From: an uncultured Fibrobacterota bacterium | GTDB taxonomy: Bacteria > Fibrobacterota > Chitinivibrionia > Chitinivibrionales > FEN-1185 | NCBI GenBank assembly: GCA_963753345.1 | Contig: CAVWBU010000047.1 | Span: forward strand, 32,001 to 96,000 | DNA: 64,000 nt | Direction: 5' to 3' | In this document: piece after piece, positions 1 through 35,013 of the stretch | Layout: each line of letters starts with the position of its first letter | Position numbering within the stretch: position 1 is the first letter of the stretch | Notes under the pieces: generated by a model | The model's input: only the letters and a program-made list of their open reading frames with translations | The model's database searches: none | Told to the model about the DNA's origin: nothing | Translations under genes and position numbers: made by a program

Positions 1-3000
1 TTTTTATCCACGGCGTCTTTACCGTGGGATTGACCCATGCGCTCATCGAAACAGTCTGCATCGTGGGCAAAAGCCCTGCGCTCAAGTACCTCCCGTTTGC
101 CAGGCTGTCTGCTCCTGCAACGATCCCGGAACCGTAACTTATGGTGGGATTTATGTCGCCGCCCATTCCGCCCAACGGGGACGTATTGAACTGCGCCTGC
201 ACGGAATTGACGTTCGTCGTCGGCGATCCGTCGTTCATGTGCCATACGCCCACGTATCCGGACGCCGCGTCGAACACGGCAGTACCGTTCGAGCTGTCGA
301 TTGCGGAACCGCTGCCCCAGGTCATCACGATGTACTGCGAATCGCTGGACGGGATGATTGCGTCCACCTTGACCCATACCTCGGCGAGGCACGCGGTGTT
401 GTCCCAGCGCTCTATCTGGTACGGCAGCGGCGTTCCAGTGGAATTTTTAAACCGCACGTCGCGTCCGTTCGGCGCGGCCTGGGCGAAATTCGCTCTTGTA
501 AAGATCGTTGTGTCGAGACGGACCAGCAGGGGAAATCCGTACAGGGTGCCGGTGATGGCGGCGCCGCTGCTCAGGGTGCTTATGTAAATCTTGCCGGTAA
601 AGGGCTCGGGGCCCGGGCGCACCGTAGGTGATGAAGAACCTGAGCGAGTCCGCATGGCCGGCGCGGTCGGTCACCGATACGAGCAGGGTGTCCTTGGACC
701 GGCCGTTCGGAGGCGTCGGCGGCAGAATGACCTTGAACAGCCCGGTTGAGTCAGCGGCGAATTGGGTCTGGCCCGACGGCCACTTCACGGTGACGACGTG
801 CCGCTCCACCGCGGGAAGATCGGGGTCCAAGATGGAAAAGAAAAGCGTGTCCGCGGTCGTCTGGCCGTACATGTTGAGCTCGCCGTCGGACGTCACCGGG
901 ATCGAATAGTTCACGGCGAGCGTGCACGGCCGGTTGGGCGGCACCACGGTGACGGGGAACAGGGCCGACACGCTCCGGTGGTTCACGTCCGTGACGGTCA
1001 CGCCGATCGTCTGCTTTCCTGTGTCGCCGAGGCCCGGATGCCATACACACAGCGGGCCCGCCATGGGAAGCGCGGCGCCGTTGAGCGTCGCGGCGAAGGA
1101 AAGCGGCGCGTTGCCCGAATCGTTGCGGATCTTGACATTCAGTACAAGGCTGTCGCTGTTCGCTTCAAGATAGGCCGGGACCGCCATTCCCGCAGTGTCA
1201 ATCTGCACGGCGGGCGGAAGGCTGCCTGCCGCTGTCACGAACACCTGGAACGAATCCGTGGTGGTCTGGTATCCGTCCGACAGATTGATCATTACCTTCT
1301 TGAGCCCGGTGTCCGAGGGGAGCTGCGGCGTCCAGGACAGCTGGAGCAGCTGGCCGAACGCAACCGCGTTCATGCTGTCGGGACCCTTGGCCTTCTGCGC
1401 CTTGACAGGATCGTTGTCCGGATCGGTCCAGACAATCGTATCAACAAGACGGCTGCCAAGGGGAATGGTGTCGCTCACGGGCGGGGCGCGCAGAATCTGC
1501 GGCGGCCTGTTCTGGCACAGGACGATCGAGACCGTGTCGCGGTTGAGCGCATTGTCAACCGCAATGATGGCGAAGGCGCTGCCGTCCGGGCGGTGCGCCA
1601 CGCTTACGGTGTCGAACCAGATGAACCCGTTGCCCTGGGCGCTCTGGGCAAGCGGCCGCTTGTTGACAAGAAGGGAGTCTATGCCCGACCCTTCGTCGAA
1701 GGCGATGATCCGGAGCACGGCCGTGGAGTCGGTGACAAATTTGTTTGCAACGGGCGCGCCGTTCACCGTGATATCGACGATCACCGGCGGCGTGCTGTCT
1801 TTCAGGGCGGTGTCGCAGACGATCAGGAGCGATTTTCCGGCGATTGAATCGCCGTTCGCGGCAGTAGGCCGCAAGCCGCACCATGTTCGACCCGATTGCA
1901 AGGGGAAGACTGAAGCTCCAATCCGCCTTGCCCTTGCCGCGCACGGTGTCGGCCAGGCTATTCTTCGCGTTGTTCTCCCACAGCTTCACAATAACAAGAA
2001 TCGAATCGTGCACATAGTCCTCAATGTGTCCGAAAATCACCTTGCTGCGCGACGAGGTCACCGAGGTGTCGGTGCTCGGATCGGTCACCGAGAACAGCAC
2101 GCCCCCGCCGTGCGCCATGGTGCTGCTGAACTGGAACCAGAATGTCTTGGTGGAAGAGACCAGGAACTGCGGGTTGTTGACGGCCGAAACCGTCACCGGG
2201 AACAGGCGAACGTTCGTGTCCAAGCGCGTGAGGACGCAAATGTAAAAAGGATCGTCGTCGATGTCGAAACTCCGTCCGTTGACAGATGCGCTTTGCACCG
2301 CGCCCGTCTGCGCCGGGTCCCAGATCTGAACCTTAAAGTAGAACGTCGTGTCGCCGGTGACAATGGTGTCCTTGCCGACGTAGCCGGCGCTGACGCACTT
2401 GATAATGGGGCCGGTGGTGTCCTTAAGGGCATAGGTGAAGGGGACCGCGGGCGAGGGGTGCGCGCCCGACGGATCGGACACCCACAGGCTGCCGGCGTTG
2501 GACAGCGAACTCATCTTTACTGATGCGACCGTCTTCGGCTTCGACGACGAGACAACGAAACCGCCGCCGAAACCCCAGTGATAGGCCACATCCGTGTCGC
2601 CGACGGGCGTGGTCGAAAGCGCCACGCTGTCGCCGAACGCGCCGCTCAGGGGGGGCTGGCCAAGCGGTGACCGCAGGTACAGGAAAAACTCCTGCGGAAC
2701 CCGATCGCCGTTGTTGCGGTAGGTGGTGACCGTAATCGTTTTCCAGCCGGTGTCGGTGAGCGAAAGGAGGTATGTGTACGGCCCGGACTCAAGCGGCTGA
2801 TGCTTTCGTACCGTAAACGTATCCGCAAGGCGGCGGTTCGAAGGGGCCGTAATCGAGAACGAGTCGACAAGCTCGCAGTTGGCCACCCTCACCACAAGGG
2901 TCTCGGTTGTAAAGATATTGAGCGTGTCGACGTCGTTAAACGACTTGTGCGTCACCACTGCGCGCGCCTTTGAAAGGTCGGTAAACGGGTTGTAATCGTT

Positions 3001-3075
3001 CGAGCACGACACCAGCGCAAATGCCGCGACCCATGCCCAGCGCACCCGGAATCGGAAGTGAATGTTCATCGGCAC
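1..3075 (-). CDS. Large surface lipoprotein with Ig/cadherin-like repeats and C-terminal DUF2341 + LamG-like domains; runs off the window; apparent frameshifts near 1860 and 612
   Basis: ORFs 1555..3075 and 447..1901 join by frameshift. Lipobox LVSC. Hand translation of 1..610 gives FPLLVRLD..NGRDVRF..LPYQIERWD..AEVWVKVD (DUF2341-like) and GVWHM..SMSAWVNP (LamG-like). Confidence 0.7.
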
Positions 3076-3076
3076 C

Positions 3077-3937
3077 TTAGAAGAAGAAGGAATACGTGAA
3101 ACCGCACGCGCCCGCCAGTCCTACGATATAGCCCGCCGTCATGAACCCCGCATTGCTGTTCCGGCCGCTCTGCGCCGCTTTGAAATCGGCGTCCCCGTTC
3201 GGATTATACAGGTCGCCCGTCACCTGGGTCATGCGCTGCTTCGACGCGTCCCACTGCTCGGTGAACACCGCGCCGACCACGGCGCCCACCACCAGCAGCG
3301 ACAGCCCCGTATAGCGAATTGCGTTCCGCTTGGGCGCGTCCGGGTCCGTAAGGATCTTCACCGGCACGCCGTCGACGGACGCGTTCTTTACGGAAAGCGA
3401 ATACGAGTACGGCTCAGCGCCGACGTTCTGCGTCTGGCCCTCGATGGTGAGGCTGGCCCGTCCGTTTTCCCTGAACACGCCCTCCAGAATCCGGACGAAT
3501 TTGGTGAGCGAGTTGATGCCGTAGACCGAATACGCCACTTCCACGTGCTGCAGGTCGGTCCCGATGGCGTCGTCGTGGACAAAGATGCCGTTCCAGTCGT
3601 AGGGGTTGGGAAGCAGGGCCGCCCCGGGGTTGAAGCGTTTGTCGTTCTCGGAAGTAAACACCACGGGGCGGGCGGCGGTGCCCTTCGCAACGAGCATGCC
3701 CTGCACGTGCAGTCCCGTGAAATTCCTGAAAAGAAAGACCGTCCCTGCCTCGACCGACACCGTTTTTCCCGCCGGCACAAAAACATCCGACGTGACAAGG
3801 TACGGGCCCTTCTCGGCCGCAACCGTTCTGGGAAGGTCGCCCACGAGCGTCGCAAAGCCGCCGAACGAGGCACGGGTAATAAGGCCGCACAGGAGCGCGG
3901 CGGCCCACAGCGGGAGATTGCGGCCGGAATGCGTCAT
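3077..3937 (-). CDS. Secreted/membrane hypothetical protein, beta-helix-like N-terminus and C-terminal TM segments
   Basis: ORF 3077..4051, likely ATG 3937 just after the kinase stop. GPYLVTSDVFVPAGKTVSVEAGT..PVVFTS..DWNGI pattern; two hydrophobic C-terminal stretches. Confidence 0.6.
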   Translation of the reverse strand: MTHSGRNLPLWAAALLCGLITRASFGGFATLVGDLPRTVAAEKGPYLVTSDVFVPAGKTVSVEAGTVFLFRNFTGLHVQGMLVAKGTAARPVVFTSENDKRFNPGAALLPNPYDWNGIFVHDDAIGTDLQHVEVAYSVYGINSLTKFVRILEGVFRENGRASLTIEGQTQNVGAEPYSYSLSVKNASVDGVPVKILTDPDAPKRNAIRYTGLSLLVVGAVVGAVFTEQWDASKQRMTQVTGDLYNPNGDADFKAAQSGRNSNAGFMTAGYIVGLAGACGFTYSFFF

Positions 3938-3939
3938 GG

Positions 3940-5799
3940 CTACCCCCGCACGTCCTTTGCCCTGTCCGCGATCCTTTGCATTTCGGAAACCGCCTTCTGA
4001 TAATGGTTGTTTTCGGGCGTCGAGCGGAAGAGCAGCTTGACCTCGAACCACGCGTCAAAGGCGTTCTTCATGGTCGCCTGGCCCGGATGATCGTCGAATT
4101 CCCTGGAATAGCTGAGCGCACGGTAGTACAGGACGTCCTGGCGGAGGACGACCGGATTGACGATCTCGCAGTGCGATTTAAGACTTGCGTCCAGAAAGTA
4201 TAGGCACTTTTCGAGATTGCCCGTCCTGAAGTGATACTTCGCCTGGGCCAGGTAAAATTCCCCGTCGTCAAGCGTTGACGACTGCAGGACGTTGTCCAGG
4301 GATTTGGTGTCGCCCAGCGCCTCGAGCACAAGGATGCGGCACAGCACCGCGGACTTCGACTGCTGCTGCTCGGCGGTCATTGCCCCGTACACGGTGGAGG
4401 CCTGCTCGTATTTCCCGAGTTTGACTTGCTTGACAAAAAGCTCCAACAGGTCCGTTGTGCCGTACTGTGCCTTGAGTTCGTCCAGGGGCGAGACCGTCGG
4501 CAGCGGCTGCGACGCCGTCTTTTCGGCCGGCGCGGCGAACGCTATCACGGGTTTATGGGAGGGCTTCGGCGCGGACATGAGCTTTTCACGCACGCCGGCC
4601 GCGGTGGGCTCGCTATGCGGGGCCGGTACAGCCTTCGGAACCTGACGCGCGGCCGATTGGGCCGCCTGCCGCTGCGCCAACCGGTGCTGGTAGGCAAGAT
4701 AGCCTGCGGCCGTAACGGCCGCAATCACGGCGGCCGCGGTCAGCACGCCGGCAATGGCGCGCAAGGGCAGCCGCCGCCGGTACCCCACTTCGGTCCTGCC
4801 GCCGTTTTCCGATCCCGTAAAGGACTGCATGACCGCTTCCGGCGACAGCGCAGTGAGGCTTTTGTGCACCCTGGTGAGCTCGGCGAGCAGGACCGCCGCG
4901 TCCTGCGGCCGGCGCTCGCGCTCCCGGCTGAGGCACTGCTGGATGACGCGCCTGAGCCTCGCCGGGATTTTGATCTTGAACGAATCAAGCGGCTTAAACT
5001 CGTTCTTCACCTTGGACAGCATCAATTTGGAGATGTTGTCTTCGGCGAATGCCTTGGTCCCGGTCACCAGCTCGTACAATATGGCGCCGAGGGAATAGAT
5101 GTCGGTGCGCACGTCCGCGGTCTTTCCTTCGAGCGTCTCCGGAGAGAGATACTGCATGCTGCCGAGCACCGAGGAATTGTCGGTGGTGTGAATGGATGCG
5201 TCGATGGGCCGCGCGATGCCGAAGTCCATGAGCTTGACGGTGCCGTCGTCGGCCACCATGATGTTGTTGGGCTTGAGGTCGCGGTGGATGATGCCGTGAT
5301 ACGTTTCCCCGTACAGCGCATACTCGTGGCTGTGAGCGTAGCGCAGCGCGCGGCAGATAAGAATACCGATGGAGGTGCATACGTCAAAGGGCAACCCGCC
5401 GCGGTCCGACACCAGCTTTTCCAGGGTGACGCCCTGGATTTTTTCCATTTCGATGAACGGCAGGCCGTTCCATTCGCCCACGGCGTGGATTTCGACGATG
5501 TTCGGATGGTCGAGCTTGGCGGTTATCTTTATTTCCGTTTCAAACCGCTCCTTTGAATCCTTCGAATAATTCGGATGGAGAAGTTTGACCGCGCGCTTCA
5601 TTTCGAGATGATTGTTCCAGATCTCATACACGTTCGCCATGCCGCCCACGCCCAAAAGCGCGGTGACCGTTCCGGAACCGAGCTCAACGGGCTTGGAGCC
5701 ATCGGGCAGGATCATCACATGAGGCACCCGCTTGTAGGAAAACGAGCCGCCATCCTGCTGGGTTGGCCGGGCCTTTTCCTGATTGTTTTCAGAATCCAT
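3940..5799 (-). CDS. Hanks-type Ser/Thr protein kinase with TM segment and C-terminal TPR-like region
   Basis: LGVGGMANVY, AVK, HRDLKPNN, DFG, GSMQYLSPE and DIYSLG motifs; central hydrophobic helix. Confidence 0.92.
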   Translation of the reverse strand: MDSENNQEKARPTQQDGGSFSYKRVPHVMILPDGSKPVELGSGTVTALLGVGGMANVYEIWNNHLEMKRAVKLLHPNYSKDSKERFETEIKITAKLDHPNIVEIHAVGEWNGLPFIEMEKIQGVTLEKLVSDRGGLPFDVCTSIGILICRALRYAHSHEYALYGETYHGIIHRDLKPNNIMVADDGTVKLMDFGIARPIDASIHTTDNSSVLGSMQYLSPETLEGKTADVRTDIYSLGAILYELVTGTKAFAEDNISKLMLSKVKNEFKPLDSFKIKIPARLRRVIQQCLSRERERRPQDAAVLLAELTRVHKSLTALSPEAVMQSFTGSENGGRTEVGYRRRLPLRAIAGVLTAAAVIAAVTAAGYLAYQHRLAQRQAAQSAARQVPKAVPAPHSEPTAAGVREKLMSAPKPSHKPVIAFAAPAEKTASQPLPTVSPLDELKAQYGTTDLLELFVKQVKLGKYEQASTVYGAMTAEQQQSKSAVLCRILVLEALGDTKSLDNVLQSSTLDDGEFYLAQAKYHFRTGNLEKCLYFLDASLKSHCEIVNPVVLRQDVLYYRALSYSREFDDHPGQATMKNAFDAWFEVKLLFRSTPENNHYQKAVSEMQRIADRAKDVRG

Positions 5800-5993
5800 C
5801 GGGCTTCCGCCGGGGTTGCGATGCACTGCAAAATTTTTGGCGAACAGGCTGGTTTTGGCGAAACCATCCAGGGCCAAGGTCTACCATTATACATAATAGC
5901 ACAATAAGGGAAATATTTCCATTGATTTTCGCACTATTTGCGCAATGGAATGCAAACCGAGTTTGGAGAAATCGCGCGGAAGTGAGATCAGGG

Positions 5994-7145
5994 CTAAGAA
6001 CGGTTCGCCCCGGAGCGGGGGCTGTGATCCTCAACCGGCATGAACCATTTCTGGGCGACAAAAGTCGGAATGACCGCGCTTGCCACAACGACACCAACTA
6101 AAATAGAATATTGAGATTGGTTGATAATTCCCGATTGTAAGCCGAAAAGGCTTGAAATAGTTCCAAAGGTCAAGCCGGTGCTCATGAGCAGCGTCGTATA
6201 CATACTACCCTGAGGAATGTATTTCTTTGCAAGAAAATAGACCCCGGCAAATTTGGCGATTATTTTGAGGAAGAAAAACAATAAAAACAGGCCAAGGCTT
6301 GCGACAATCAAAGGGTAAGAAATCCTAAGGCCGCCAACGATGAAGAAAACCGGGGTTATAATGGCATAGGCCACTGTGCGGAGACGTTGTATAACCAAAT
6401 GGTGTTCCGATTCCTTTCCGAAATACTTGGACATGAATAGGCCAAGCACAAAAGCGGGAAGCACTGCATGTCCTTCACCGAGGTTGGCGAAATAAATAAG
6501 GGTCAATAAAAGCACGAAAATGTACTTGATCTCGGATTCAACCACCTTATTCTTGAATACCGAATGGCTAAAAAGGTAATGAGAAAACAGGGACGCAACG
6601 ATTATCACTGCAATAGAAACGACATAAAATAGAAGCGTGAACCATGTCGGCTTTACAAAAATAACACTTAGCGTCAAAGCCGTACCCATGTCCGTGATGA
6701 ACGTTGACGACATTAGAAGCTTACCTATGCGAGTATCCGACAGACCGCTTTCCACAAGGACGGAATAAATGACAGCTAGGGACGTCGTTGATAAGGCTAT
6801 TCCCGCAACAAGTGCAGCTTGAATACCCCAGTGCAGCGCAAACAACGCAACGACTGCCACTACAATAAACGGTAGCAAAAATGAAAAACCGCCGATCAGC
6901 AGACTGCTTTTCAGGTTCTCCTTCATCATTTTCGTGTCGATTTCGGTTCCGGCAAGAAACGTGAGAATAATACCGCCGAATCCTGCCAGGTACTGCATCC
7001 ATTCTGCCGTATGCAGGCCGAAATTACCGGCAATAGAACCAAGAAGAATTTCGACAATCGCTACTGAAATACCGAGACGCAATGAGATTATGCTTGCGAC
7101 AAAGATAATCAGACCTGTGAATAAAGGATTTAAATCCGCGTGCAT
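5994..7145 (-). CDS. Cation:proton antiporter (Na+/H+ exchanger family, CPA2-like)
   Basis: 383 aa, highly hydrophobic; FLAGTEID, ALSTTSLAVI and TDMG motifs; RBS AGGAGG upstream. Confidence 0.88.
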   Translation of the reverse strand: MHADLNPLFTGLIIFVASIISLRLGISVAIVEILLGSIAGNFGLHTAEWMQYLAGFGGIILTFLAGTEIDTKMMKENLKSSLLIGGFSFLLPFIVVAVVALFALHWGIQAALVAGIALSTTSLAVIYSVLVESGLSDTRIGKLLMSSTFITDMGTALTLSVIFVKPTWFTLLFYVVSIAVIIVASLFSHYLFSHSVFKNKVVESEIKYIFVLLLTLIYFANLGEGHAVLPAFVLGLFMSKYFGKESEHHLVIQRLRTVAYAIITPVFFIVGGLRISYPLIVASLGLFLLFFFLKIIAKFAGVYFLAKKYIPQGSMYTTLLMSTGLTFGTISSLFGLQSGIINQSQYSILVGVVVASAVIPTFVAQKWFMPVEDHSPRSGANRS

Positions 7146-7176
7146 GACAGCCTCCTATGAGAAAATGAAGCAAACC

Positions 7177-7240
7177 ATAGGAGTCATCAGCCACATCTTG
7201 AGAGAAGAAGAATAGCGGTTTAAGGTGGAACTCCATCACC
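7177..7240 (-). ncRNA. Fluoride riboswitch (crcB motif) #2, upstream of the antiporter; translational platform
   Basis: Minus strand reads GGTGATGGAGTTCCACC-TTAAACC-GCTAT..GTGGC-TGATGACTCCTA: P1 GGTG/CACC, pseudoknot GGAGT/ACTCC, conserved GATG and TGATG. Downstream CTCCTATG pairs with CATAGGAG over the RBS. Confidence 0.9.
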
Positions 7241-7266
7241 TACGAACAATTAATATTCTTAAAACG

Positions 7267-7703
7267 TTATTTCCGGTCAGGCCTCCTCACAATTAATACA
7301 TCGCAGTGGGCCGTTTCACTGATTCGGTCCGCCGTTGGTCCAAGAACCCTGCCGATAAAGCCGGAGTGGCCGACTTGACCAATTACAATTAGATCAAAGC
7401 CGTTTTTTTCGGCATACTGTACTATCTCGCGAGAAGCGTTTCCCCGCAGATTTACCGATTGCACGTTCATATTATGATCAACTGCGCCTTTTTCGGCATA
7501 GCTCTTAAGATTATTGAAATATTCCTCCACCGCTTCGATTTCACCCTCAATTCGTCCTTTCTCACAGCTTGACGAGGTAGGTCATCACGAACCCATCCTA
7601 TGGTGATTGAGGCATTGTGTTCCTGAGCAACAGTAAATGCACGGGCAAGCGCGGCCTTCGACCCGTCCGATCCGTCAAAGGCAGCAAGGATTTTTTTATA
7701 CAT
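7267..7703 (-). CDS. Universal stress protein (UspA family), apparent frameshift near 7540
   Basis: N-terminal [19 protein letters not shown] in ORF 7467..7757; C-terminal [30 protein letters not shown] in ORF 7267..7530. Confidence 0.85.
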
Positions 7704-7704
7704 A

Positions 7705-8986
7705 TCACCTCGCATTCTTGAATGATTTCTTTCCGGCAAAAACAGCCTGTTTCCCAAGGAATTCTTCGATTCGAATCAATTGATTGAACTTGGCGGTGCG
7801 CTCGCTCCGGCAGCCTGAGCCGGTTTAGGGGTGCTGCACAAGTTACGACTGTCAAGTCCGCTATCGTCGTGTCTTCGGTTTCGCCGGAACGGTGCGAAAC
7901 GAAACAGTTGTAATTATTCTTCACCGCCAATGCAATTGTATCGAACGTCTCGGTAAGCGTACCGATCTGGTTCAGCTTTATGAGAATGGAATTTGCAATG
8001 CCCTTTGCAATGCCCTGCGCCAGAATGGCCGGGTTTGTGCAGAAAATATCATCACCCACAATTTCGATTTTGCCGCCGAGTTCATCGGTCAACAATTTCC
8101 AGCCATCCCAGTCATTTTCCGCCATGCCGTCTTCGAGGAGAACAATCGGATATTTGTCTGCCCAACTTGCCCAATGCTTGACCATCTGTTCGGAGGTCTT
8201 TGACGATTTGTCAGACTTGAAAAACACATATTTGCCGCTATCCCACATTTCACTTGCAGCCGGGTCAAGGCAGATTGAAATATCTTTGCCCGGCTGATAT
8301 CCTGCTTTAGTGATGGCATCGAGGATAACTTCTACAGCCTCTTCATTGGATTTAAGATTCGGGGCAAAACCTCCTTCGTCGCCGACCGCCGTGCTATAGC
8401 CCTTTTTCGAAAGAACAGATTTCAGCGTATGAAACGTCTCGATTCCCATTCGTATCGAAGTGCGAAAATCGGGGGCATTGTGCGGAGCGATCATGAATTC
8501 CTGAAAGTCAACGTTGTTATCGGCATGCTTTCCACCGTTAATGATGTTCATGCAGGGAACCGGAAGGAGGCTGGCGTTCACGCCGCCCAAGTACCTGAAC
8601 AAGGGTACATTAAGATTGTTGCATGCCGCCCGAGCCACCGCAAGAGACACGGCGAGGATCGCATTTGCACCCAATACTGATTTATTAGGAGTGCCGTCGA
8701 GTGAAAGCATGACAGCGTCAATTTCTCTCTGATTCAGGGCGGACATTCCTTTGACGGCCGGTGCGATTTTCGTATTTGCGTTTTCGACTGCTTTAAGAGT
8801 GCCTTTGCCGAGATAGCGTTTTTTGTCCCCGTCTCTTAGCTCAACCGCTTCCTTTTCGCCGGTCGATGCACCGGACGGGACAATTGCACTGCCCTTTATG
8901 CCATTTTCAAGGGTTACCTCAGCTTCAACAGTGGGATTTCCCCTTGAATCCAATACTTCTCTTGCATGGACATTTGTGATTTTCAT
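7705..8986 (-). CDS. eno: Enolase (phosphopyruvate hydratase), apparent frameshift near 7830
   Basis: [50 protein letters not shown]; the C-terminus [17 protein letters not shown] continues in a shifted frame to TGA at 7705. Confidence 0.96.
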
Positions 8987-9027
8987 AAGGATTCCTTTCT
9001 TGGTGGCTGTTTTATCGCCATTGGGAC

Positions 9028-9065
9028 AAAAAAAACTCCTACTGATACTTTTTACCAGTAGGAGT
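9028..9065 (-). terminator. Intrinsic terminator forming the expression platform of fluoride riboswitch #1
   Basis: ACTCCTACTG-11 nt loop-CAGTAGGAGT followed by a U-tract; the 5' arm overlaps the aptamer pseudoknot strand ACTCC. Confidence 0.88.
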
Positions 9066-9107
9066 CATCAGCCGAAATTCAGGCGTTTATAGGCGAACTC
9101 CATCGCC
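9057..9107 (-). ncRNA. Fluoride riboswitch (crcB motif) #1, upstream of eno
   Basis: Minus strand reads GGCGATGGAGTTCGCC-TATAAAC-GCC..GGC-TGATGACTCCTAC, matching the known fluoride aptamer consensus. Confidence 0.93.
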
Positions 9108-9114
9108 AGAAATC

Positions 9115-9143
9115 AAAATACATCAAAAAGAAATATAATCCAA
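9115..9143 (-). promoter_or_regulatory. Putative sigma70-type promoter for the riboswitch-eno operon
   Basis: TTGGAT-17 bp-TATTTT, ending 7 nt before the first aptamer nucleotide. Confidence 0.5.
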
Positions 9144-9228: not shown

Positions 9229-10269
9229 CTACGTCTCCCGCACCTCGTCCCAGTCGGCCTTGACCATGATCTCGACGAGCTTGTCAAACGAGACTGACGG
9301 CTTCCACCCGAGACTTCTTCGCGGCCTTGGCCGGGATTGCCGAGCAAGCAGGTCCACTTCGGCGGGCCGGAAATACTTCGCGTCCACGCGGATCACCACG
9401 TTGCCGCTCGCGGTATCGGTGCCGGTCTCGTTGACTCCCTCGCCCGACCATCGGATGGGCATGCCCAGCGCGCTAAACGCCTTCTCCGCGAATTCCCGCA
9501 CCGAATGCGTCTCACCCGTGGCGATCACATAATCGTCCGGCTTGTCCTGCTGAAGCATGCGCCACATTGCCTCCACGTAGTCGGGCGCATAGCCCCAGTC
9601 GCGCTTGGCGTTGAGGTTGCCTATGTAAAGGCACTGTTTCTTGCCTGCCTTGATGGCCGCCGCGGCCATGGTGATCTTGCGCGTGGAGAAATTCTCGCCC
9701 CTGCGCGGCGACTCGTGGTTGAACAGGATGCCGTTGCTCGCGTGGAGGCCGAAGGCCTCGCGGTAGTTCACCACGATCCAGTACGCGTACAGCTTGGCGA
9801 CCGCATAGGGCGACCGGGGATGAAACGGCGTGGTCTCGCTCTGCGGGACCTCGTGCGCCTTGCCGAACAGCTCCGACGTCGATGCCTGGTAGAACCGGGT
9901 CTGGATGCCGGTCTCCTTGATTGCGTCGAGGATGCGGAGGGTGCCGGTCGCGTCGACGTCGGCCGTGTACTCGGGCACCTCGAACGACACCGCCACGTGC
10001 GACTGGGCCGCCAGGTTGTAAATCTCGTGGGGCTTTATCTTCTCCAGGAGCCTGTTCATGTTGCTCGAATCGGACATGTCGCCGTAGTGGAGAAAGAAAT
10101 TGACGTTCTTGTCGCGCGAGTCGCGGAACAGGTGGTCGATGCGCTTCCGGTTGAAGTAGCTGGCCCTGCGGATCTGGCCGTGGACTTCGTACCCCTTGTC
10201 AAGCAGCAGCTCCGCAAGGTACGAGCCGTCCTGGCCCGTAACGCCGGTGATGAACGCGCGCTTTGTCAT
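9229..10269 (-). CDS. gmd: GDP-mannose 4,6-dehydratase
   Basis: [57 protein letters not shown]; a short garbled stretch near 9330 suggests compensating indels. Confidence 0.96.
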
Positions 10270-10450
10270 GAGATCCTTTCGGTGCGCCCAGGACCGCGGC
10301 ATGGCCGCGAAAGTCTGTTCCCGGGTGCGGGGTGCATTGTATTTTTACATGCGCCCGCCTGTGTGGAAGCGCTTCGGGCCGGGGCACACTCCAAAAATAA
10401 TACAGCGAACACACGTCTGTTTACAACAAAGCAATCGGATCAACCGCTTC

Positions 10451-12682
10451 ATGGACCAGCCGCTCACCACACCGCAGACCCCTCCCCCGCCGGCGCCCCC
10501 CGTGGCCGGCAAACGGGTGGCCGCGGTCGTTCTGGCCGCGGTGTTCCTGTGCTCCTGCGCGTTCGCCGCGGCCGGGTGGTTCCTCTACCGCATGTACGAG
10601 ACCCTGCCCACGCTCGACCAGCTCGAGAACATCGAACCGCCGCTCTCGTCGAAAGTCCTGGGAAAGGACGGCTCCCTCATCCACGAGTTCTCCATTGAAA
10701 AGCGCTCGTGGGTATCGCTCAAGGACATTCCGCAGAACCTCGTCAATGCGGTGATCGCCATCGAAGACCGCAAGTTCTATACGCACTGGGGCGTTGACCT
10801 CAAGAGAATCCTCGGCGCCGTGTTCGTGAACCTCGGCAGGCGCCACTACGCCCAGGGCGCGTCCACGCTCACCCAGCAGCTCGCGCGCAACGTGTACCTG
10901 TCAAGCAAGACCTCCATGGTCCGCAAGATCCGCGAAGCCATGACCGCGATGCAGATCGAGCAGTACTACGCCAAGAGCGAAATCCTCGAGCTCTACCTCA
11001 ACCAGGTGTACCTCGGCGCGGGCGTGTACGGCGTAGAGGCCGCCAGCCAGTGCTACTTCTCAAAACACGTGTCGCAGCTTTCGCTCAACGAATGCGCCGT
11101 GCTCGCCGGGCTCATCCAGCTGCCCGAGCGGTACCGGCCCGACCGCAAGGCGAACCTGAAAAACACGGCAGCCCGGCGCGCGCGGGTGCTTGCCGCCATG
11201 GTGTCGATGCACTATCTCGACAGGGCGGCCGCCGACGCCGTTGACAAAGCGGACGTTCCCTCCAGGCCGCAGACCGACGTGTCGAAATGCGCCCCGTATT
11301 TCGTGGAGATGGTGCGGCAGTACTGCGAGCAGAAATACGGCGACGACATGCTCTACAACGGCGGCCTCACCATCTACACCACGCTCGACCCCGGGGCCCA
11401 GGATTCCACCGAAACGGCGACCACGGCGCACCTCGCCGGGCTCCAGAAAAAAATGAACGGGATCTACCTTGACAAAACGCGCATGTTCAAGAAGCTCAAG
11501 ATCTCCCGCGATTTCTTTGCCGCGCATTTCGACTCGGTCTATGCCGCCCACCGCGCCGAGTGCGAGGCCTTCCCCGATTCCCTGCGCCTGCGGATCGTCC
11601 AGACCGCGGTGGTCGCCATGGACGTGAGCAGCGGCGCCGTCCTCACCCTGGTAGGCGGCCGCAACTTTCTCGAAAGCAAATTCAACCGCGCCGTGCAGTC
11701 GGTGCGCCAGCCCGGGTCCGCCTTCAAGCCCATCGTGTACACCGCGGCCATCAATCACGGGTTTACGCCCGCGAGCGTCATCCTCGACCAGCCCATCACC
11801 CTCCAGACGCCGCAGGGCGAGTGGCGGCCCGAGGACTTCGACGGCACGTTTCAGGGGCCGGTGACGCTGCGCCACGCGCTCAACCATTCGCTCAACCTGG
11901 TCGCCATCCAGGTGTTCATGCAGGTGGGCGGCGACACCGTGGTGAGTTACGCGCGCAGGATGGGCCTGCGCCAGCGCATAGAGCCCGTGCCGTCGCTGGC
12001 CATCGGTTCGTGCGAGGTGGTGCCCATGGAGCTGCTCGCGGCCTACGCCATTTTTCCCAACAAGGGAATGCGCAACGAACCGTATTTCGTGGAGCGCATT
12101 ATTGACAAAAACGGAAACGTCCTGGAGGAGCACGATCCCGCGCCCGTGCAGGTCCTGTCGGCCCAGACCTCGTACATGATGTGCGACCTGCTTCGGACCG
12201 TGGTCCAGCGGGGGACCGCCGCTGCTATTCCCGGCCTGGGCTTTACCCGGCCCTCGGCCGGAAAAACCGGCACGTCCAACGATTTCTCAGATGCGTGGTT
12301 TGTGGGCTTCACCCCGCAGATCGCGTGCTGCGTGTGGGTGGGCATGGACGAGCGGCTCTCCCTCGGCTACGGCGTGACCGGTTCCGCCGGCGCCGTGCCG
12401 CTTTACGTAAAGGCAATGATCGCCCTGCACCGCAAGGTGCCCATTGAGAATTTCGCGAAACCGGACAGCATCGTGACCGAGAAGGTGTGCCCCATTTCCC
12501 ACAAGATCGCCACTGCCTACTGCCCCCAGCCCTACGACGAGACGTTCATCGAAGGCCAGACGCCCGAACAGTGCGACATGCACGGACCGGGAAAGGTGAA
12601 GAGCGAGAATTCCACCAATATGTTCGGGCCGAAGGAGAAGACGGGGGAGAAAGTTCCTGCTAAAAAGAGATTAATGTTCTAA
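10451..12682 (+). CDS. mrcA: Class A penicillin-binding protein (PBP1A family)
   Basis: Transglycosylase motifs EDRKFYTHWG, QGASTLTQQL, RKIRE; transpeptidase SAFK, SLN, KTG; N-terminal TM helix. Confidence 0.93.
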   Translation: MDQPLTTPQTPPPPAPPVAGKRVAAVVLAAVFLCSCAFAAAGWFLYRMYETLPTLDQLENIEPPLSSKVLGKDGSLIHEFSIEKRSWVSLKDIPQNLVNAVIAIEDRKFYTHWGVDLKRILGAVFVNLGRRHYAQGASTLTQQLARNVYLSSKTSMVRKIREAMTAMQIEQYYAKSEILELYLNQVYLGAGVYGVEAASQCYFSKHVSQLSLNECAVLAGLIQLPERYRPDRKANLKNTAARRARVLAAMVSMHYLDRAAADAVDKADVPSRPQTDVSKCAPYFVEMVRQYCEQKYGDDMLYNGGLTIYTTLDPGAQDSTETATTAHLAGLQKKMNGIYLDKTRMFKKLKISRDFFAAHFDSVYAAHRAECEAFPDSLRLRIVQTAVVAMDVSSGAVLTLVGGRNFLESKFNRAVQSVRQPGSAFKPIVYTAAINHGFTPASVILDQPITLQTPQGEWRPEDFDGTFQGPVTLRHALNHSLNLVAIQVFMQVGGDTVVSYARRMGLRQRIEPVPSLAIGSCEVVPMELLAAYAIFPNKGMRNEPYFVERIIDKNGNVLEEHDPAPVQVLSAQTSYMMCDLLRTVVQRGTAAAIPGLGFTRPSAGKTGTSNDFSDAWFVGFTPQIACCVWVGMDERLSLGYGVTGSAGAVPLYVKAMIALHRKVPIENFAKPDSIVTEKVCPISHKIATAYCPQPYDETFIEGQTPEQCDMHGPGKVKSENSTNMFGPKEKTGEKVPAKKRLMF

Positions 12683-12709
12683 TTTCAATATTTCTATTAA
12701 TAATTAAGC

Positions 12710-12903
12710 TGGGCGTTCCCCCTATTGTAAAGGCGCAGAATTCTGCGCCTTTACAATAGGGGGCGGTTCTCCTTCCGGTCTCGGCCTCCGGCCTCGGGCC
12801 GCCTGCCACGAGGGCCCTGCGGGCCGTGGTCAGGCGGCATCCCGCTTTGGCGGGACCTCCAGTCGCCCCTAACGCGCGGCAGAGGAAATCCTGTTCCGTC
12901 AAG
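12710..12903 (+). repeat. Intergenic palindromic repeat family A, copy A1 (contains a perfect 46-bp palindrome 12718-12763)
   Basis: TGGGCGTTCCCC...CCGGTCTCGGCCTCCGGCCTCGGGCCGCC...GCATCCCGCTTTGGCGGGACCTCCAGTC...CTAACGCGCGGCAGAGG...GTCAAG; blocks recur at about 10 loci. Confidence 0.85.
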
Positions 12904-12980
12904 ATCACAATCTTGCGCCTGGCTCTCGAAATAGATAACTTCACAATTCATCATCTGCTTTTCCCTACCAACCACCCTCC

Positions 12981-13130
12981 GTGGGTGCCCCCACACAGGT
13001 GTATGGTTCTGCAACTACTTTGTCAAGGGGGCTACCCTGGAGGGGGTAGCGGAGGCCTGGCCGCGCAGTTCCATACTTCTTTTTTGTGAAGCTGCGCGGC
13101 CAAGCCGTAGCGAGGGGGATACTTCCCCCC
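12981..13130 (+). repeat. Intergenic repeat family B, copy B1
   Basis: GGGTGCCCCC...GGGGGCTACCC..GAGGGGGTAGCGGAGG...GCGAGGGGGATACTTCCCCC; recurs at 6 loci. Confidence 0.85.
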
Positions 13131-13180
13131 CTTATACCTCTTTGTATTTTCGGCTTCATTTCTCATTGTATTTTCAAGCC

Positions 13181-14998
13181 ATGGCCTCAAAAGAACTTAT
13201 AGAATCATTAGACCGCTTCCCCGAAAGCCCGGGTGTCTATTTAATGAAAGACGCATCCGGCGGGCTGCTTTACATAGGCAAGGCAATAAACCTCAAATCA
13301 CGAGTCAAATCTTATTTCCTTGACACGCACGAAGACCGGCCGCAGATTCCCTTCATGCTGGCACGGCTCGACCACGTGGACTGGATCGCCACACGCAGCG
13401 AGACCGAGGCGCTCATCCTCGAGGCGAACCTGATACGCAAGCATAAGCCGAAGTTCAACATAGACCTCAAGGACGACAAGCATTACCCCTATCTCAAGAT
13501 AACCGTGCAGGAGCCGTTTCCGCGGCTCCTGGTGGTGCGCAGGGTGGAAACCGACGGTAGCCGCTACTTCGGGCCGTACACCGATGCACGGGCCATGCGC
13601 AGGCTCATTCACTTTGCAAAACGGATTTTTCAGATACGCGACTGCAACCGCGACCTTCCGCTCAAGAAGCCTTCACGGCCGTGCGTGAATTTCGGGATCG
13701 GCCGCTGCAGCGGCGCATGCGCCGCCAAGATTTCGCAGGACGAATACCGCGCCAACGTGGACATGCTGGTCCGCTTTCTTATGGGCCGCAGAAAGGACGT
13801 AGTGCGCGAGCTTGAAGCGAGAATGGAGGCAGCCGCCGCCGCGACGCGGTTCGAGGAGGCGGCGCTCATGCGCGACCAGATCCGCCTCATTGGCGACGCA
13901 TCGCAGGCCCAGAAGGTCGACCTTGCCGCACTCGACGAGGACTGCGACGTTTTCGGCGTTTTCAAAGGCGACCGCTCGCTGTGCCTCGCGGCGCTTTGCG
14001 TGCGCGAGGGCCTGCTCATGTCGGCGCGAAGGTTCGCGTTCGACAAGGCATCGTGGGAGGCGCAGGGCGCGGGCATGGAAACGCTGCTGATGCAGTTCTA
14101 CCTTGACGCAGGAGAACAGCCTCCGCCCGAAGTGCTCGTGTCGCAGGAGGCGGGCATCGATCCCGCGCTTCTGGAGCAGGCTTTTCTGTCACAGTTCGGC
14201 CGCGCCGTGAACGTCGCGGTGCCGCAGAAGGGCGCGAAGCGCGGCCTTGCCGATATGGCCGTGAAAAACGCTCGCCTGTACCTGATGCAGAAGCTTCCAC
14301 CGAACGCGCTCGACGACCTTACCGAGCTGCAGACCATTCTCCACCTTCCCAGGTTCCCGCATGTCATCGAGGCGTTCGACATATCGAACATGGGCGAGAC
14401 CAACGCGGTCGCAGGCATGGTGCGGTTCGTGGAAGGCGAGGCGGACAAATCCGGATACCGGCGGTACAAAATAAAGACCGTAACCGGCCAGAACGACTTC
14501 GCCATGCTCATGGAGGCGGTAACGCGCAGACTGTCGCGCCAAGATGAAGAAAGCAGGCAGTTTGCCGACCTTTATCTTATCGACGGCGGGCTCGGTCAAC
14601 TGCACGCTGCGATGGAAGCAATGGGGAAATTTGAAAACCCGCCGATGGCGATTGCGCTTGCCAAAAGGGAGGAGCTCATCTATTCTCCCTATGGCAAGGA
14701 ACCGGTTCGCCTTCCGTCAACGCACCCGGTGCGCAAGTTCCTGGAACGCATCCGCGACGAGGTGCACCGGTTTGCCATCGCCTATCATCGTACCCTGCGC
14801 GGTCACCGGCTGGCCGTGTCTGCACTGCAGTCGGTGCCGGGCATGGGCAAGAAACGTGTTGTGCTGCTGTTGCGCCATTTCGGTTCGCTGTCGGCCGCGC
14901 GCAAGGCGAGCGTGGAGGAGATTGCGAAAGTGAAGGGCATTCCGGCAACGCTGGCGCAGGAGATTAAGAAGTTTTTGGAAGACATGGCAGCGGATTGA
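13181..14998 (+). CDS. uvrC: Excinuclease ABC subunit C
   Basis: PGVYLMKD..YIGKA (GIY-YIG), EALILEANLI, IEAFDISN, LIDGGLGQ, IRDEVHRFAI, C-terminal HhH motifs. Confidence 0.96.
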   Translation: MASKELIESLDRFPESPGVYLMKDASGGLLYIGKAINLKSRVKSYFLDTHEDRPQIPFMLARLDHVDWIATRSETEALILEANLIRKHKPKFNIDLKDDKHYPYLKITVQEPFPRLLVVRRVETDGSRYFGPYTDARAMRRLIHFAKRIFQIRDCNRDLPLKKPSRPCVNFGIGRCSGACAAKISQDEYRANVDMLVRFLMGRRKDVVRELEARMEAAAAATRFEEAALMRDQIRLIGDASQAQKVDLAALDEDCDVFGVFKGDRSLCLAALCVREGLLMSARRFAFDKASWEAQGAGMETLLMQFYLDAGEQPPPEVLVSQEAGIDPALLEQAFLSQFGRAVNVAVPQKGAKRGLADMAVKNARLYLMQKLPPNALDDLTELQTILHLPRFPHVIEAFDISNMGETNAVAGMVRFVEGEADKSGYRRYKIKTVTGQNDFAMLMEAVTRRLSRQDEESRQFADLYLIDGGLGQLHAAMEAMGKFENPPMAIALAKREELIYSPYGKEPVRLPSTHPVRKFLERIRDEVHRFAIAYHRTLRGHRLAVSALQSVPGMGKKRVVLLLRHFGSLSAARKASVEEIAKVKGIPATLAQEIKKFLEDMAAD

Positions 14999-15090
14999 GA
15001 ATGTTTTGTGACGCCCTTACAGGGCTTGTGATGATTCCCTATTGTTATAACCCTCATCGTTCATGCCGAATCATTTGAAAGGAGATGCTG

Positions 15091-15792
15091 ATGAAACCGA
15101 AGGAGTCAACCACAAAGGCCGTGGGGTTTTTGCCCATCACCCTGCCAAAGCCGTCGGACTGGCACGGAAAATCGGTCTACGCTGCCCTCAAGGTAAGAAG
15201 GACAACACGCAAGATCAGTTCAAAGGCATTTTCTTTACAGATGCTTTCCAACCTGCTCTGGGCGGCAGATGGCGTTAACCGCAAATCCGGCCCCTTCGGG
15301 CTTCCCGGCAGAACCGCGGCCTCGGCAAGCAACTCCCGGGAAATAGAGGTGTACGCAGCAATGGAGAAAGGCGTTTACCTTTACGAGCCCGCCGGCCATC
15401 GCCTTGTTCCGGTTGCTCAAGGCGACTTTCGCCCCATGGCGATCGGCTACGGCCAGAAGACCTGGGGATCGAACGCGGCCATACGCCTTATCTATGTTGC
15501 GGACATTGACAAATTCAAAAAGTCCGGGTTTGACGAACCCAGGCTGCACGAGCCGGAAGGCCAAAAGGCCTATTACTACACCGACACCGGCCTTGTTGCG
15601 GGAAACGTGTACCTGTTCGCCGCCTCGCAGGGCCTTGCGGCGTGGTTTCACAACTGCGACAGGGAGATGGTGTCAAAGGTATTAAAATTACCGGAAAGCA
15701 AGAGGCCGCTGTTCGGGCAGACCATTGGATATGCGGGAAAACAATTATATGAAAGAGATGGGCGTTCCCCTCGCTATTCGTTACTGGAATAA
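15091..15792 (+). CDS. Nitroreductase-like (SagB/ThcOx family) protein
   Basis: ITLPKP..ALKVRRTTR, LSNLLWAADGVNR, RTAASASN, DTGLVAGNVYLFAASQGL; the last codons read into a repeat-A fragment at 15759. Confidence 0.85.
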   Translation: MKPKESTTKAVGFLPITLPKPSDWHGKSVYAALKVRRTTRKISSKAFSLQMLSNLLWAADGVNRKSGPFGLPGRTAASASNSREIEVYAAMEKGVYLYEPAGHRLVPVAQGDFRPMAIGYGQKTWGSNAAIRLIYVADIDKFKKSGFDEPRLHEPEGQKAYYYTDTGLVAGNVYLFAASQGLAAWFHNCDREMVSKVLKLPESKRPLFGQTIGYAGKQLYERDGRSPRYSLLE

Positions 15793-15799
15793 AAACACT

Positions 15800-15961
15800 T
15801 GGGCGCCCCGCCGCTTTGCGGCGGCGGCCCTCCCTCCGGGCTCGGCTGTTCGCCTCGTTGCCGGATGGCCCTATGCCTGTCGGCCGGGTCGGCCGGCAAC
15901 GCGCTCTTGCGCGCCCTACGGTCCTGCCTGGCGCGCGGCAACAGAAGTGTATTCAGTCAAG
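15800..15961 (+). repeat. Repeat family A, copy A2 (diverged)
   Basis: TGGGCGCCCCG..CTCCGGGCTCGGC..GGTCCTGCCTGGCGCGCGGCAACAG..GTCAAG. Confidence 0.7.
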
Positions 15962-16044
15962 ATTAAATCTTGCGCCAGCCTGAATTCTCGAGCGAAGAAG
16001 TAAAATTCCTTTGTGTGGTTTTTGACTTCTTAACTGCTTGACTC

Positions 16045-29192: not shown

Positions 29193-29335
29193 ACATCCCC
29201 CTCTACTTTAACATGTGGTCTCTTCCCGGAATGTAATATAAACAAAAAAAGGCTAGGTATCAAAACAGAATAGATTCCCAATAAAAAAGAAATTGTTAAA
29301 CGAAATATGTTCCATTCTTTAAATGCTATGGTTTT

Positions 29336-31582: not shown

Positions 31583-31914
31583 GGGATATCTTCTCCGATC
31601 CGGGTTGGGCCGGCTGGGACTCAATGGGGAAAATAATAAAAGGGAACAAGAGAACGCGTTTTGAACTTAACATAAGATACGGAAGAGGGAAACTGTCCGC
31701 CCGCTATTCAACTCAGCCGCCTTGTTTGACAAAATGAGTTCTTTCGCTTTCATGCTGATTGGAAAACATCTGAAAGACGGGCCATTTTGTTTCTTGACAA
31801 AGACATTCAAAACCTATGTGTCTTTAGCGTTTCGAGTAACTATTTTATCTGTAGTTTCCGTTGCAAGGCGTGATCCCGTTTTCCCGTCGTTACCAGCCTT
31901 CCAAAAGGTGGCGC

Positions 31915-34900: not shown

Positions 34901-35013
34901 AAGTGTATGGGTTGACTAAATCGCAAAAAGAGGTATTGAGGAAATATCCAAGGAAGGTCAACCGGTTCGACCTTCTCACCAGACAGACGGTTGTGGAGGA
35001 AGACGGGGAATAA
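31915..35013 (+). CDS. Type IIG restriction-modification enzyme (Eco57I-like fused nuclease, N6-adenine MTase and TRD)
   Basis: N-terminal RPDY..IDAKK (PD-D/ExK), GAVYTP, VLDPACGSAGFL, GVDID, VVGNPPY. Confidence 0.88.
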   Translation: MDKKTAAKQALSSLINEFSKLDRKGILKGQSEATARSWVEKFLMIFDWDCSNPHQVRQEYRIQGRAARRLKSEGTSHRRPDYCLISNNQRLLYIDAKKFDADIKNDSGISYQVRCYGWSEGFKVSYAFDFEELAVYDCRIRPKDSDEADMARVLYLHQSEYLDNFDAVWEYFSRKAIDTGSLSRLLPDDEKPQGGKTLDQDFEENLSAWRKELAKSILRYGKIREADIISAASQRILDRIVFLRICEEFGFEELGTLLEMGQNEDGFWPLFMEEHDKRYCKVYDGILFPASGEDDPTGVDTHLRSWWLKGRIFRDIVETLYFPHPYRFDVVPIELLGGVYERYLGKRLRVIGNDVQDEYKLEYQRTKGAVYTPPWIVKRIVEKTLSPLVKDKDPDELLKLRVLDPACGSAGFLLGVYDFLADHIVTWFGHHLSDRRRTAYVAETEDGPRVAPRIAHDIINNCICGVDIDPEAVEVARMSLALRYLEQTSSMSGEPHLLLKGIGLNIRQGNSLVGPDIVGLGIDAEKVISETMPFDWHSITTGFGAVMEKGGFDAVVGNPPYIEVKRYKEWMPSQYRYFKESGVFETTAEGKTDIAMPFMEQGLKLLNKNGRLGFIIQNRFFKTDYGEIVRSWLKRNKAIAEIEDFRDLQIFEGRTTYTTVLILQKNSPSVNYRTYDTVTDAAADNPSVQCTLKWDAIDGNVWSFDQPDLLEVHHYLAQKHGTIGRHTQLQISVGLQTLYGKLYQFEPVEVKPRTVVGRNGEGEIITLEKAALRPLCRNRGFYPFRQDNADAWVIFPYDVAEGEASEIGWKEFKERFPKAASYLEERKRKLLKAVDAEEGVNRWHLYRYPKNLASQASAKVLFPSTIEDTIAAVDEKGDIYQDNVRMNSISFRNATITQLKSLACLVNSTTFSALARLKAGLSDSGWRQFNRQYAELVPFPIAIINDPDTVRTLSGLADKIGDLQAKSISASTEGAKTGFRATIESLWRQLDGVVEEVYGLTKSQKEVLRKYPRKVNRFDLLTRQTVVEEDGE

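Follow-up and report, generated by a model that had tools for sequence, protein, structure and literature searches.

In a 64,000-nt stretch of DNA from an uncultured Fibrobacterota bacterium (contig CAVWBU010000047.1, positions 32,001 to 96,000; hereafter the window), a fluoride-response cassette of about 3.1 kb lies on the minus strand, from about 9125 to about 6022. It carries genes for an enolase (eno), a universal stress protein (USP; usp) and a cation:proton antiporter of the CPA2 type, with one fluoride riboswitch ahead of eno and another ahead of the antiporter, and its composition is foreign to the host, a high-GC, Chitinivibrionia-like Fibrobacterota chromosome. Very probably this is a two-switch cassette whose conserved core consists of the second aptamer and the antiporter, with eno and usp as passengers.

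Layout and composition of the cassette

The cassette sits between gmd and a Ser/Thr kinase gene. As the initial annotation had it, eno, usp and the antiporter form one co-oriented unit: Pfam assigns all three genes, each on the minus strand. In window coordinates, the features are:

End at 9229: gmd (TIGR01472, 561 bits)
9052..9116, minus strand: aptamer 1 (RF01734), 5′ of eno (Rfam, 59.4 bits)
9034..9066, minus strand: intrinsic terminator of riboswitch 1 (terminator scan and fold)
7705..8986, minus strand: eno (phosphopyruvate hydratase), interrupted (Pfam, TIGR01060)
7822..7828, minus strand: eno frame break (DNA and protein comparison with locus L054)
7267..7703, minus strand: usp, interrupted (Pfam Usp in two open reading frames (ORFs))
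7545..7581, minus strand: interval holding the usp frame break (frame positions and length of the L003 homologue)
7171..7249, minus strand: aptamer 2 (RF01734), with a long P2 loop, directly 5′ of the antiporter (Rfam, 50.5 bits)
7152..7183, minus strand: predicted Shine-Dalgarno-sequestering hairpin of riboswitch 2 (minimum free energy (MFE) fold)
5994..7145, minus strand: CPA2-type cation:proton antiporter, 383 aa, intact (Pfam Na_H_Exchanger)
5877..3940: Ser/Thr kinase gene, next after the antiporter (Pfam)

The proper stop codon of eno occupies 7707–7705 and usp starts four bases on, at 7703. The GC content of the islet (5994–9143) is 46.6%, against 61.1% and 60.5% in the flanks (1–5900 and 9230–16000, respectively); it is the lowest-GC 3,150-nt stretch in the window, the runner-up being 29201–32350 at 49.0%. 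The contrast thus stands as first described, and the values then given, about 40% against about 58%, were several points off. GC at third codon positions (GC3) is 0.45–0.53 in the islet genes and 0.74–0.87 in the kinase gene, gmd, PBP1, uvrC, hisH and pyrB.

Two aptamers with different predicted expression platforms

With Rfam 15 and its gathering thresholds (score 34 for RF01734), a cmscan search of the complete window returned exactly two matches, both to the fluoride riboswitch family and both on the minus strand. Aptamer 1 (9116..9052; 59.4 bits, E = 6.2e-14) and aptamer 2 (7249..7171; 50.5 bits, E = 4.7e-11) each cover positions 1–64 of the 64-position model, and the two complete aptamers reported earlier at 9057–9107 and 7177–7240 lie inside these matches, which exceed the gathering score. 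Our own covariance model, R1, built from 12 aptamers, scores them at 74.1 and 55.9 bits, respectively. Fluoride riboswitches bind fluoride together with Mg2+ to switch expression; they have two short helices linked by conserved nucleotides, and the loop of P1 (GGAGU) can pair in a pseudoknot with a 3′ tail that reads ACUCCU. Aligned to the model, both window aptamers have this pseudoknot pairing, with GAUGGAGUU in the P1 loop and CUGAUGACUCCUA in the tail. Across the 66 matches that R1 finds in the window and in 63 loci from other genomes (described below), 89.5% of aligned cells pair and five of the eight pairs are changed on both sides; the covariation score of this alignment, which was itself fitted to the model, was reached by none of 500 shuffles.

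Folds predict for both aptamers an expression platform that competes for the 3′ strand of the aptamer. In riboswitch 1, ACUCCUAC is both the 3′ strand of the aptamer and the 5′ arm of a terminator hairpin at 9066–9034, with 14 pairs, a loop of 5 and then U8 (terminator scan). The hairpin folds at −19.9 kcal/mol (z −5.1), a stability matched by none of 200 shuffles, and its stem is retained in locus L003 and, through the two-sided change CUAC/GUAG to CUGC/GCAG, in L001. In riboswitch 2, CUCCUAUGG (7183–7175), the 3′ strand of the aptamer, pairs over 9 bp with UCAUAGGAG (7160–7152) in the MFE fold; the pairing covers the Shine-Dalgarno (SD) sequence of the antiporter, AGGAGG at 7156–7151, ahead of the AUG at 7145. 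Among 54 leaders of related loci, 36 have at least 75% of the SD paired in the MFE fold, mostly with the aptamer's ACUCCU, and 10 contain a run of at least five U. The bases beside the CUCC/GGAG pairing vary from locus to locus and yet pair, as UAUGG/UCAUA in the window, UAC/GUA in L001 and UGCC/GGCG in L005.

The usp stop codon is only 17 nt from aptamer 2, so there is no room for a terminator between them. With a terminator after aptamer 1, an aptamer 2 that pairs with the antiporter SD and no terminator in between, the earlier proposal that the last gene is gated twice is structurally plausible.

On the mechanism that we propose, transcription would start just 5′ of aptamer 1, a placement suggested by the structure. 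Without fluoride, the 3′ strand of aptamer 1 would enter the 14-bp terminator and the transcript would stop ahead of eno; with fluoride bound, that strand would be kept in the pseudoknot and the polymerase would pass through eno and usp. Aptamer 2 would be a second gate, acting on translation, with CUCCUAUGG pairing the SD region of the antiporter when fluoride is missing and leaving it free when fluoride is present. The antiporter would be the payload, most likely offsetting by CPA2-fold cation/proton exchange the acid load and the loss of proton-motive force that follow entry of hydrogen fluoride (HF). The enolase would be an additional copy of a fluoride-inhibited enzyme, and eno and usp accessory passengers.

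The antiporter and its own aptamer

The antiporter matches Pfam Na_H_Exchanger (PF00999) at 136 bits against a cut-off of 26.2, over profile positions 2–372 of 375. Protein searches return thousands of homologues, the best of which (P0001) is 92% identical, and 87 of the 383 alignment columns are invariant in 121 sequences. The ORF ends in HSPRSGANRS (window 5994–6027) in place of the acidic tail of its relatives, for example EDILEEE in L001. An AlphaFold2 model built on a 22-sequence alignment was poor (mean pLDDT, the predicted local confidence, 48.8; pTM, the predicted fold score, 0.47), and nothing is drawn from it.

A scan of species-representative genomes with the antiporter gave 63 loci. 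The closest are three metagenome-assembled genomes (MAGs) of Fibrobacterota, L001 (89% identity), L002 (80%) and L003 (79%); the other full-length matches, at 57–70% identity, come from many bacterial phyla and, by title, from Methanoperedens, Methanobacteriaceae, Micrarchaeota and Woesearchaeota. Rfam places a fluoride aptamer before the antiporter in all eight loci tested, and with R1 an aptamer ends at most 200 nt before the antiporter in 56 of the 63 (median gap 25 nt). Of the seven loci without one, L057 begins where its contig does and L063 is fragmentary; the others are L020 and the group L030, L042, L045 and L047, which forms one clade (support 94 in the SH-like approximate likelihood ratio test (SH-aLRT)) in an antiporter tree of 59 rows and 19 label groups, from which the truncated L039, L050, L060, L062 and L063 were omitted. 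Seven loci carry additional aptamers.

Partners other than the aptamer are far less constant. With the window proteins as queries, tblastn finds an eno in the vicinity of the antiporter at 4 of the 63 loci (L010, L026, L046 and L054) and a usp at one (L003), a count that would miss distant Usp proteins. Pfam was run on 102 of 205 same-strand neighbouring ORFs and on 33 chosen ORFs, the other half being partly covered; the other neighbours are unrelated genes. The conserved, selected core is aptamer 2 with the antiporter, and eno and usp are accessory.

Several neighbourhoods show other arrangements. L052 (5992–7964) and L053 (82–1929) have an aptamer, a gene of the ILVD_EDD family (dihydroxy-acid/6-phosphogluconate dehydratase), a second aptamer and the antiporter; the two units, titled Planctomycetales and Syntrophaceae, are near-identical (end branches 0.004 and 0.012), from recent transfer or a binning error. 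In the Ignavibacteriaceae loci L054 (4055–7977) and L010 (346–5540), the antiporter accompanies an intact eno and a dynamin-family GTPase, the order in L054 being aptamer, GTPase, two small ORFs, eno, aptamer and antiporter. DUF6062 proteins follow the aptamer in L012 (140–712) and the antiporter in L059 (9181–10494), and in L046 (3122–3707) a NUDIX hydrolase comes after a weak match to the aptamer (24.8 bits). The closest eno cluster (P0127) and the closest antiporter cluster (P0001) agree in the length of their longest contig, 8954 nt, and P0130 and P0018 likewise agree at 7417 nt, which hints that an intact eno and the antiporter may be neighbours on those contigs.

Interrupted frames of eno and usp

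The eno ORF as sequenced runs from 8986 to 7598 and contains Pfam Enolase_N (PF03952) in full (1–131 of 131), Enolase_C (PF00113) only over 3–254 of 296, and a TIGR01060 match of 598 bits over its first 386 aa. Three-frame translation shows that its frame is right for 8986..7826 and that the remaining 39 sense codons, with the stop codon, are read in the next frame (7824..7705). At the break the window reads CTAAACC where the intact eno of L054 has TTAAAAACA (wider context CTAAACCGG in the window, TTAAAAACAGG in L054), a net loss of 2 nt in the A-run 7826–7824 by which the Lys of LKTGS is gone. All 12 homologues that we fetched are single-frame proteins of 425–440 aa with (H)LKTGS or (H)IKTGS, and they include intact 427-aa enolases of 91% identity. 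As sequenced, the window does not encode a full-length, single-frame enolase with the Lys of (H/Q)(I/L)KTGS; it would if the 2-nt loss were an assembly error.

The usp frame is broken as well, and no continuous Usp domain of about 141 positions is present. Pfam Usp (PF00582) matches 1–55 of 141 in the ORF 7703..7467 and 73–141 in the ORF 7530..7267, the N-terminal part (7703 to about 7560) being in one frame and the C-terminal part (about 7557 to 7267) in another. An intact 145-aa homologue, L003:7433–7870 (Usp 1–141 of 141), matches both parts in a single frame. The second frame opens at 7581, after TGA TGA at 7587–7582, and a conserved 11-residue segment is already read in it. The break appears to be a net loss of 1 nt, for which the A-run 7560–7558 is the likeliest place; by hand count, one added base restores the 26-residue spacing from VR to EEYF of the L003 protein. 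The initial annotation had the module inducing an extra enolase and a USP, which is not borne out for this sequence, as both genes are frame-broken.

Gene loss among related Fibrobacterota loci

The window, L001, L002 and L003 form one antiporter clade (SH-aLRT 100), and the other three loci retain different parts of the cassette. In sensitive blastn, L003 matches window 9122–8898, comprising aptamer 1, the terminator, the ribosome-binding site of eno and about 90 nt of eno, a remnant decayed by one frameshift and a stop; it then jumps to window 7703–7179, with usp (intact in L003) and aptamer 2 (L003 7884–7962), after which comes the antiporter. L001 matches 9125–9028, that is, aptamer 1 (L001 7645–7742, 86.7% identity over 98 nt) and its terminator, and then 7334–7138, which holds the last usp codons, aptamer 2 (L001 7890–7963) and the antiporter start. 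The eno start region is fused to the end of usp, and after loss of the two genes the two aptamers of L001 lie about 170 nt apart. In L002 only one aptamer is present, immediately ahead of the antiporter, and it resembles aptamer 1 most. Directly 3′ of the antiporter in L003 lies an IS5/IS4-type transposase (9373–10234, minus strand; DUF4096 and DDE_Tnp_1 in two overlapping frames).

These alignments point to a full cassette that was ancestral to the clade and from which eno and usp were lost at least twice independently. Should the breaks in the window be real, it would capture the opening stage of a repeated reduction in which Fibrobacterota shed eno and usp and keep the Thr-Asp CPA2 antiporter with its translational switch, a scenario to which we give a little less than an even chance.

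Weighing the alternatives

Several observations weigh against an acquired, doubly gated cassette with decaying passengers. A sigma-70 scan (6 sites in all against 4.7 expected, in a host whose promoter type may differ from the sigma-70 consensus) found no promoter-like site on the minus strand 5′ of aptamer 1 or within the operon. The anti-SD hairpin by itself does not stand above shuffles (z −0.6; 57 of 200 equally good). Polarity could end the long transcript short of the antiporter if eno and usp are pseudogenes that are not translated, and double gating would then be moot. The antiporter falls below the NCBIfam CPA2 cut-off (TIGR00932, 97.7 against 238.3 bits). CPA2 proteins such as NapA have an Asp-Asp ion-binding pair in transmembrane helix 5 (TM5) and a partner Lys in TM10; the window protein has Thr151-Asp152 at the place of the pair, with Thr in 120 and Asp in 119 of 121 family sequences. 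The borders of the islet show no adjoining mobility gene (Pfam) and, besides the shared aptamer cores (D10, D16), only short repeat families at chance level; the Rfam scan of the window returns no tRNA, and descent within Fibrobacterota would fit the antiporter tree. Finally, both frame breaks lie in A-runs without secondary lesions, the eno tail is conserved and at least three genes are broken elsewhere, which favours sequence error.

A sigma-70-like element read by eye, TTGGAT-17-TATTTT, ends 7 nt before the P1 helix of aptamer 1; it fails the criteria of the scan and is a guess only.

The strongest alternative is that the cassette is intact in the organism, the frameshifts being errors in the assembly consensus, so that fluoride induces a working enolase, USP and antiporter. 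We hold assembly error and real early decay to be evenly balanced. The proper frames are free of stops, and the out-of-frame tail of eno is nearly as well conserved as the rest (32 of 37 residues identical to P0122, compared with 351 of 385 before the break). At the 263 columns invariant in the 12 homologues, the window enolase deviates at 7, of which 4 fall at residues 381–387; the break aside, this leaves 3, within the range of 0–4 obtained when each of eight homologues of 88–91% identity (P0122, P0123, P0125–P0127 and P0129–P0131) is left out in turn. Those same four changes, within the 7 residues before the break, speak for real decay, and the lesion is no simple homopolymer slip.

Breaks elsewhere in the window bear on the same choice. 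hisF (48508–49300, plus strand) is split, with His_biosynth 1–71 in the ORF 48508–48783 and 78–227 in the ORF 48758–49300 and the break within GCCGCGCGAG, near 48735. Two further pairs, which we take to be normally single proteins, are probably broken: BtrH_N (50539–51090) and DUF4872 (51087–51557, profile from position 31) on the plus strand, split at about 51085, and Response_reg (54760–55452, profile 1–96 of 111) and SpoIIE (54107–54847) on the minus strand, split at about 54930, each pair lying in different frames. The sequence is therefore either prone to indels or from a genome rich in pseudogenes, and with at least three frame-broken genes outside the islet, error is as likely as real decay. 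Against error, two breaks in the 3.15 kb of the islet exceed expectation from three in the other 60.85 kb (Poisson expectation 0.155, P(≥2) = 0.011), a figure that would weaken if unconfirmed GC3 frame switches elsewhere were counted, and the islet is only 1.6–2 times denser in A/T runs. The chief reason for thinking that the window frameshifts could be real is that deletions have removed the same genes from the three closest relatives. Whether or not the breaks are real, the antiporter would remain under fluoride control.

The output of the GC3 frame-switch scan was too noisy for counting; the candidate switches near 1850–1900, at about 41500 and at about 53330 lack Pfam support and were not counted. 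A 108-aa ORF at 47552–47878 (minus strand) matches BPD_transp_1 only at positions 76–169 of 184 and may be a fragment or another broken gene.

The second alternative is that the cassette is no recent import but has long been passed down vertically in Fibrobacterota genomes, its low GC following from the constraints of a membrane protein and AU-rich leaders. Several relationships fit this view. The window antiporter and the three Fibrobacterota loci form one clade (SH-aLRT 100); the best named eno matches, at 83–85% identity, are from Chitinispirillaceae; and the host UvrC points the same way, being 76% identical to a Chitinivibrionales MAG protein, 57–59% to Chitinispirillaceae and 56% to Fibrobacter (best matches 80–81%). 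Module GC is also below that of the flanks in L001–L003 and L052, and the borders are bare. Yet GC3 is as low in the soluble enolase as in the other two genes and far from that of six host genes, and the kinase, gmd, PBP1 and uvrC of the window occur, by tblastn, in none of the 63 loci. The four clade members stand in four different genomic contexts, one of them beside the IS5-type transposase. DNA similarity of the antiporter to L001, L002 and L003 ends at 6027–6028, inside its last codons, as expected of an insertion junction; the last codons are therefore read from host DNA, which the islet probably joins at 5994–6027. Elsewhere in the tree, phylum labels are intermixed (22 label changes among 19 groups), with Methanobacteriota and Micrarchaeia rows among bacterial ones. 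We regard purely vertical descent as unlikely.

Acquisition, as the initial annotation proposed, is supported by the foreign composition and by context, not proven, and the border signatures of mobility that would go with it are missing. Since the antiporter groups with three Fibrobacterota MAGs and the UvrC and eno matches agree, any transfer was probably within the phylum, from a lower-GC donor.

A third alternative concerns the payload: the antiporter might itself handle fluoride as a non-canonical substrate, as a third transporter class of fluoride resistance. Its near-obligate coupling to an aptamer of its own, its unusually high conservation across bacterial and archaeal phyla and the Thr in place of the first NapA Asp could all be read in this way, and our literature search, in a limited collection, found no published link between CPA2 proteins and fluoride riboswitches. 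On the other side, the residues expected of a cation site are kept: Asp152 and an invariant Lys298 (121 of 121), which aligns with the TM10 Lys of NapA (the counterparts presumably being D157 and K305 of that protein). The only solved relatives found are Na+/H+ antiporters, namely NapA entries (4bwz nearest, then 5bz2 and 5bz3), aligned over residues 14–364 at E = 3.2e-7 for the single sequence and 6.4e-11 for the family profile, which brought up no PDB entries beyond those of NapA. The portion of a review available to us explains the association by pH homeostasis (PMC11139923). Fluoride transport by this protein is a long shot. Because Asp152 and Lys298 are retained, a cation site is suggested and we keep the reading as a cation/proton exchanger, which would most likely offset acidification by HF.

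Programmed ribosomal frameshifting that regulates eno and usp is suggested by the A-rich stretches at both breaks and can be dismissed: the eno of L054, L026 and L010 and of the 12 fetched proteins and the usp of L003 are single-frame, eno would need a net two-base shift and loses a conserved Lys codon, and unrelated window genes are broken too.

Other features of the window

The second lowest-GC region of the window, 29201–35013, may be another acquired segment. It contains a 762-aa protein with FGE-sulfatase, PKD and Ig domains (29336–31624, minus strand), adjoined by a 1050-aa Eco57I-type restriction-modification methylase (31861–35013, plus strand). A sorting domain of the type IX secretion system (T9SS) lies at 43310–44857.

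Discussion

Riboswitch control of eno, usp and Na+/H+ antiporters is already known, and the cassette overturns no current knowledge. According to the available portion of a review (PMC11139923), Na+/H+ antiporters are the class most commonly associated with fluoride riboswitches after exporters, with a role in pH homeostasis, and enolase is often present in fluoride riboswitch operons. The window unit shares with that regulon, as described there, the aptamer class (RF01734) and the antiporter and enolase gene classes. It differs in having no Fluc/CrcB or CLC-F exporter, in having two aptamers, one predicted to act on transcription and one on translation, and in that two of its three genes are frame-broken.

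A close parallel is the genomic island GI3 of Enterobacter cloacae FRM. In the part of that report available to us (PMC5533749), a riboswitch-controlled operon, ppaC-uspA-eno-gpmA-crcB, lies on an acquired island with transposases on its flanks, and fluoride induces eno 176-fold and uspA 120-fold. The likeness lies in riboswitch control of uspA and eno on an acquired island; as described there, GI3 differs in its single riboswitch, in carrying ppaC, gpmA and crcB, in lacking a CPA2 antiporter and in its flanking transposases (PMC5533749). The window islet has no mobility genes at its borders and is known from sequence alone. With NapA, the Na+/H+ antiporter of Thermus thermophilus, the window antiporter family shares the matching Asp and Lys, and it differs in its distant relation, in its Thr for the first Asp and in a score below the CPA2 cut-off.

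Tandem and multiple riboswitch arrangements are a general concept, and here too one ligand would be sensed twice on the path to one gene. Unlike a tandem riboswitch, the window aptamers are separated by 1.8 kb of sequence that includes genes, would act at different levels (termination and translation initiation) and form no cooperative unit. Our literature search, limited in its collection and made by title and the start of the abstract, found no tandem fluoride riboswitch described.

For annotation, both RNA switches are real and the antiporter is the gene that counts; eno and usp should not be transferred as functional without read-level confirmation. More broadly, the interest of the cassette is modest and lies mainly in the tight coupling of aptamer and antiporter across bacteria and archaea and in the reductive series. 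In both domains, members of one defined CPA2 antiporter clade nearly always have a fluoride aptamer of their own, and the clade is a clear candidate for transport assays. The four Fibrobacterota loci are a small, datable example of gene loss turning separate switches into a tandem pair. If this series is true, deletion of the genes in between would bring aptamers for the same ligand together, as in L001. Such deletions would offer a natural origin for tandem fluoride riboswitches and for the gating of one transporter at two levels, termination and translation.

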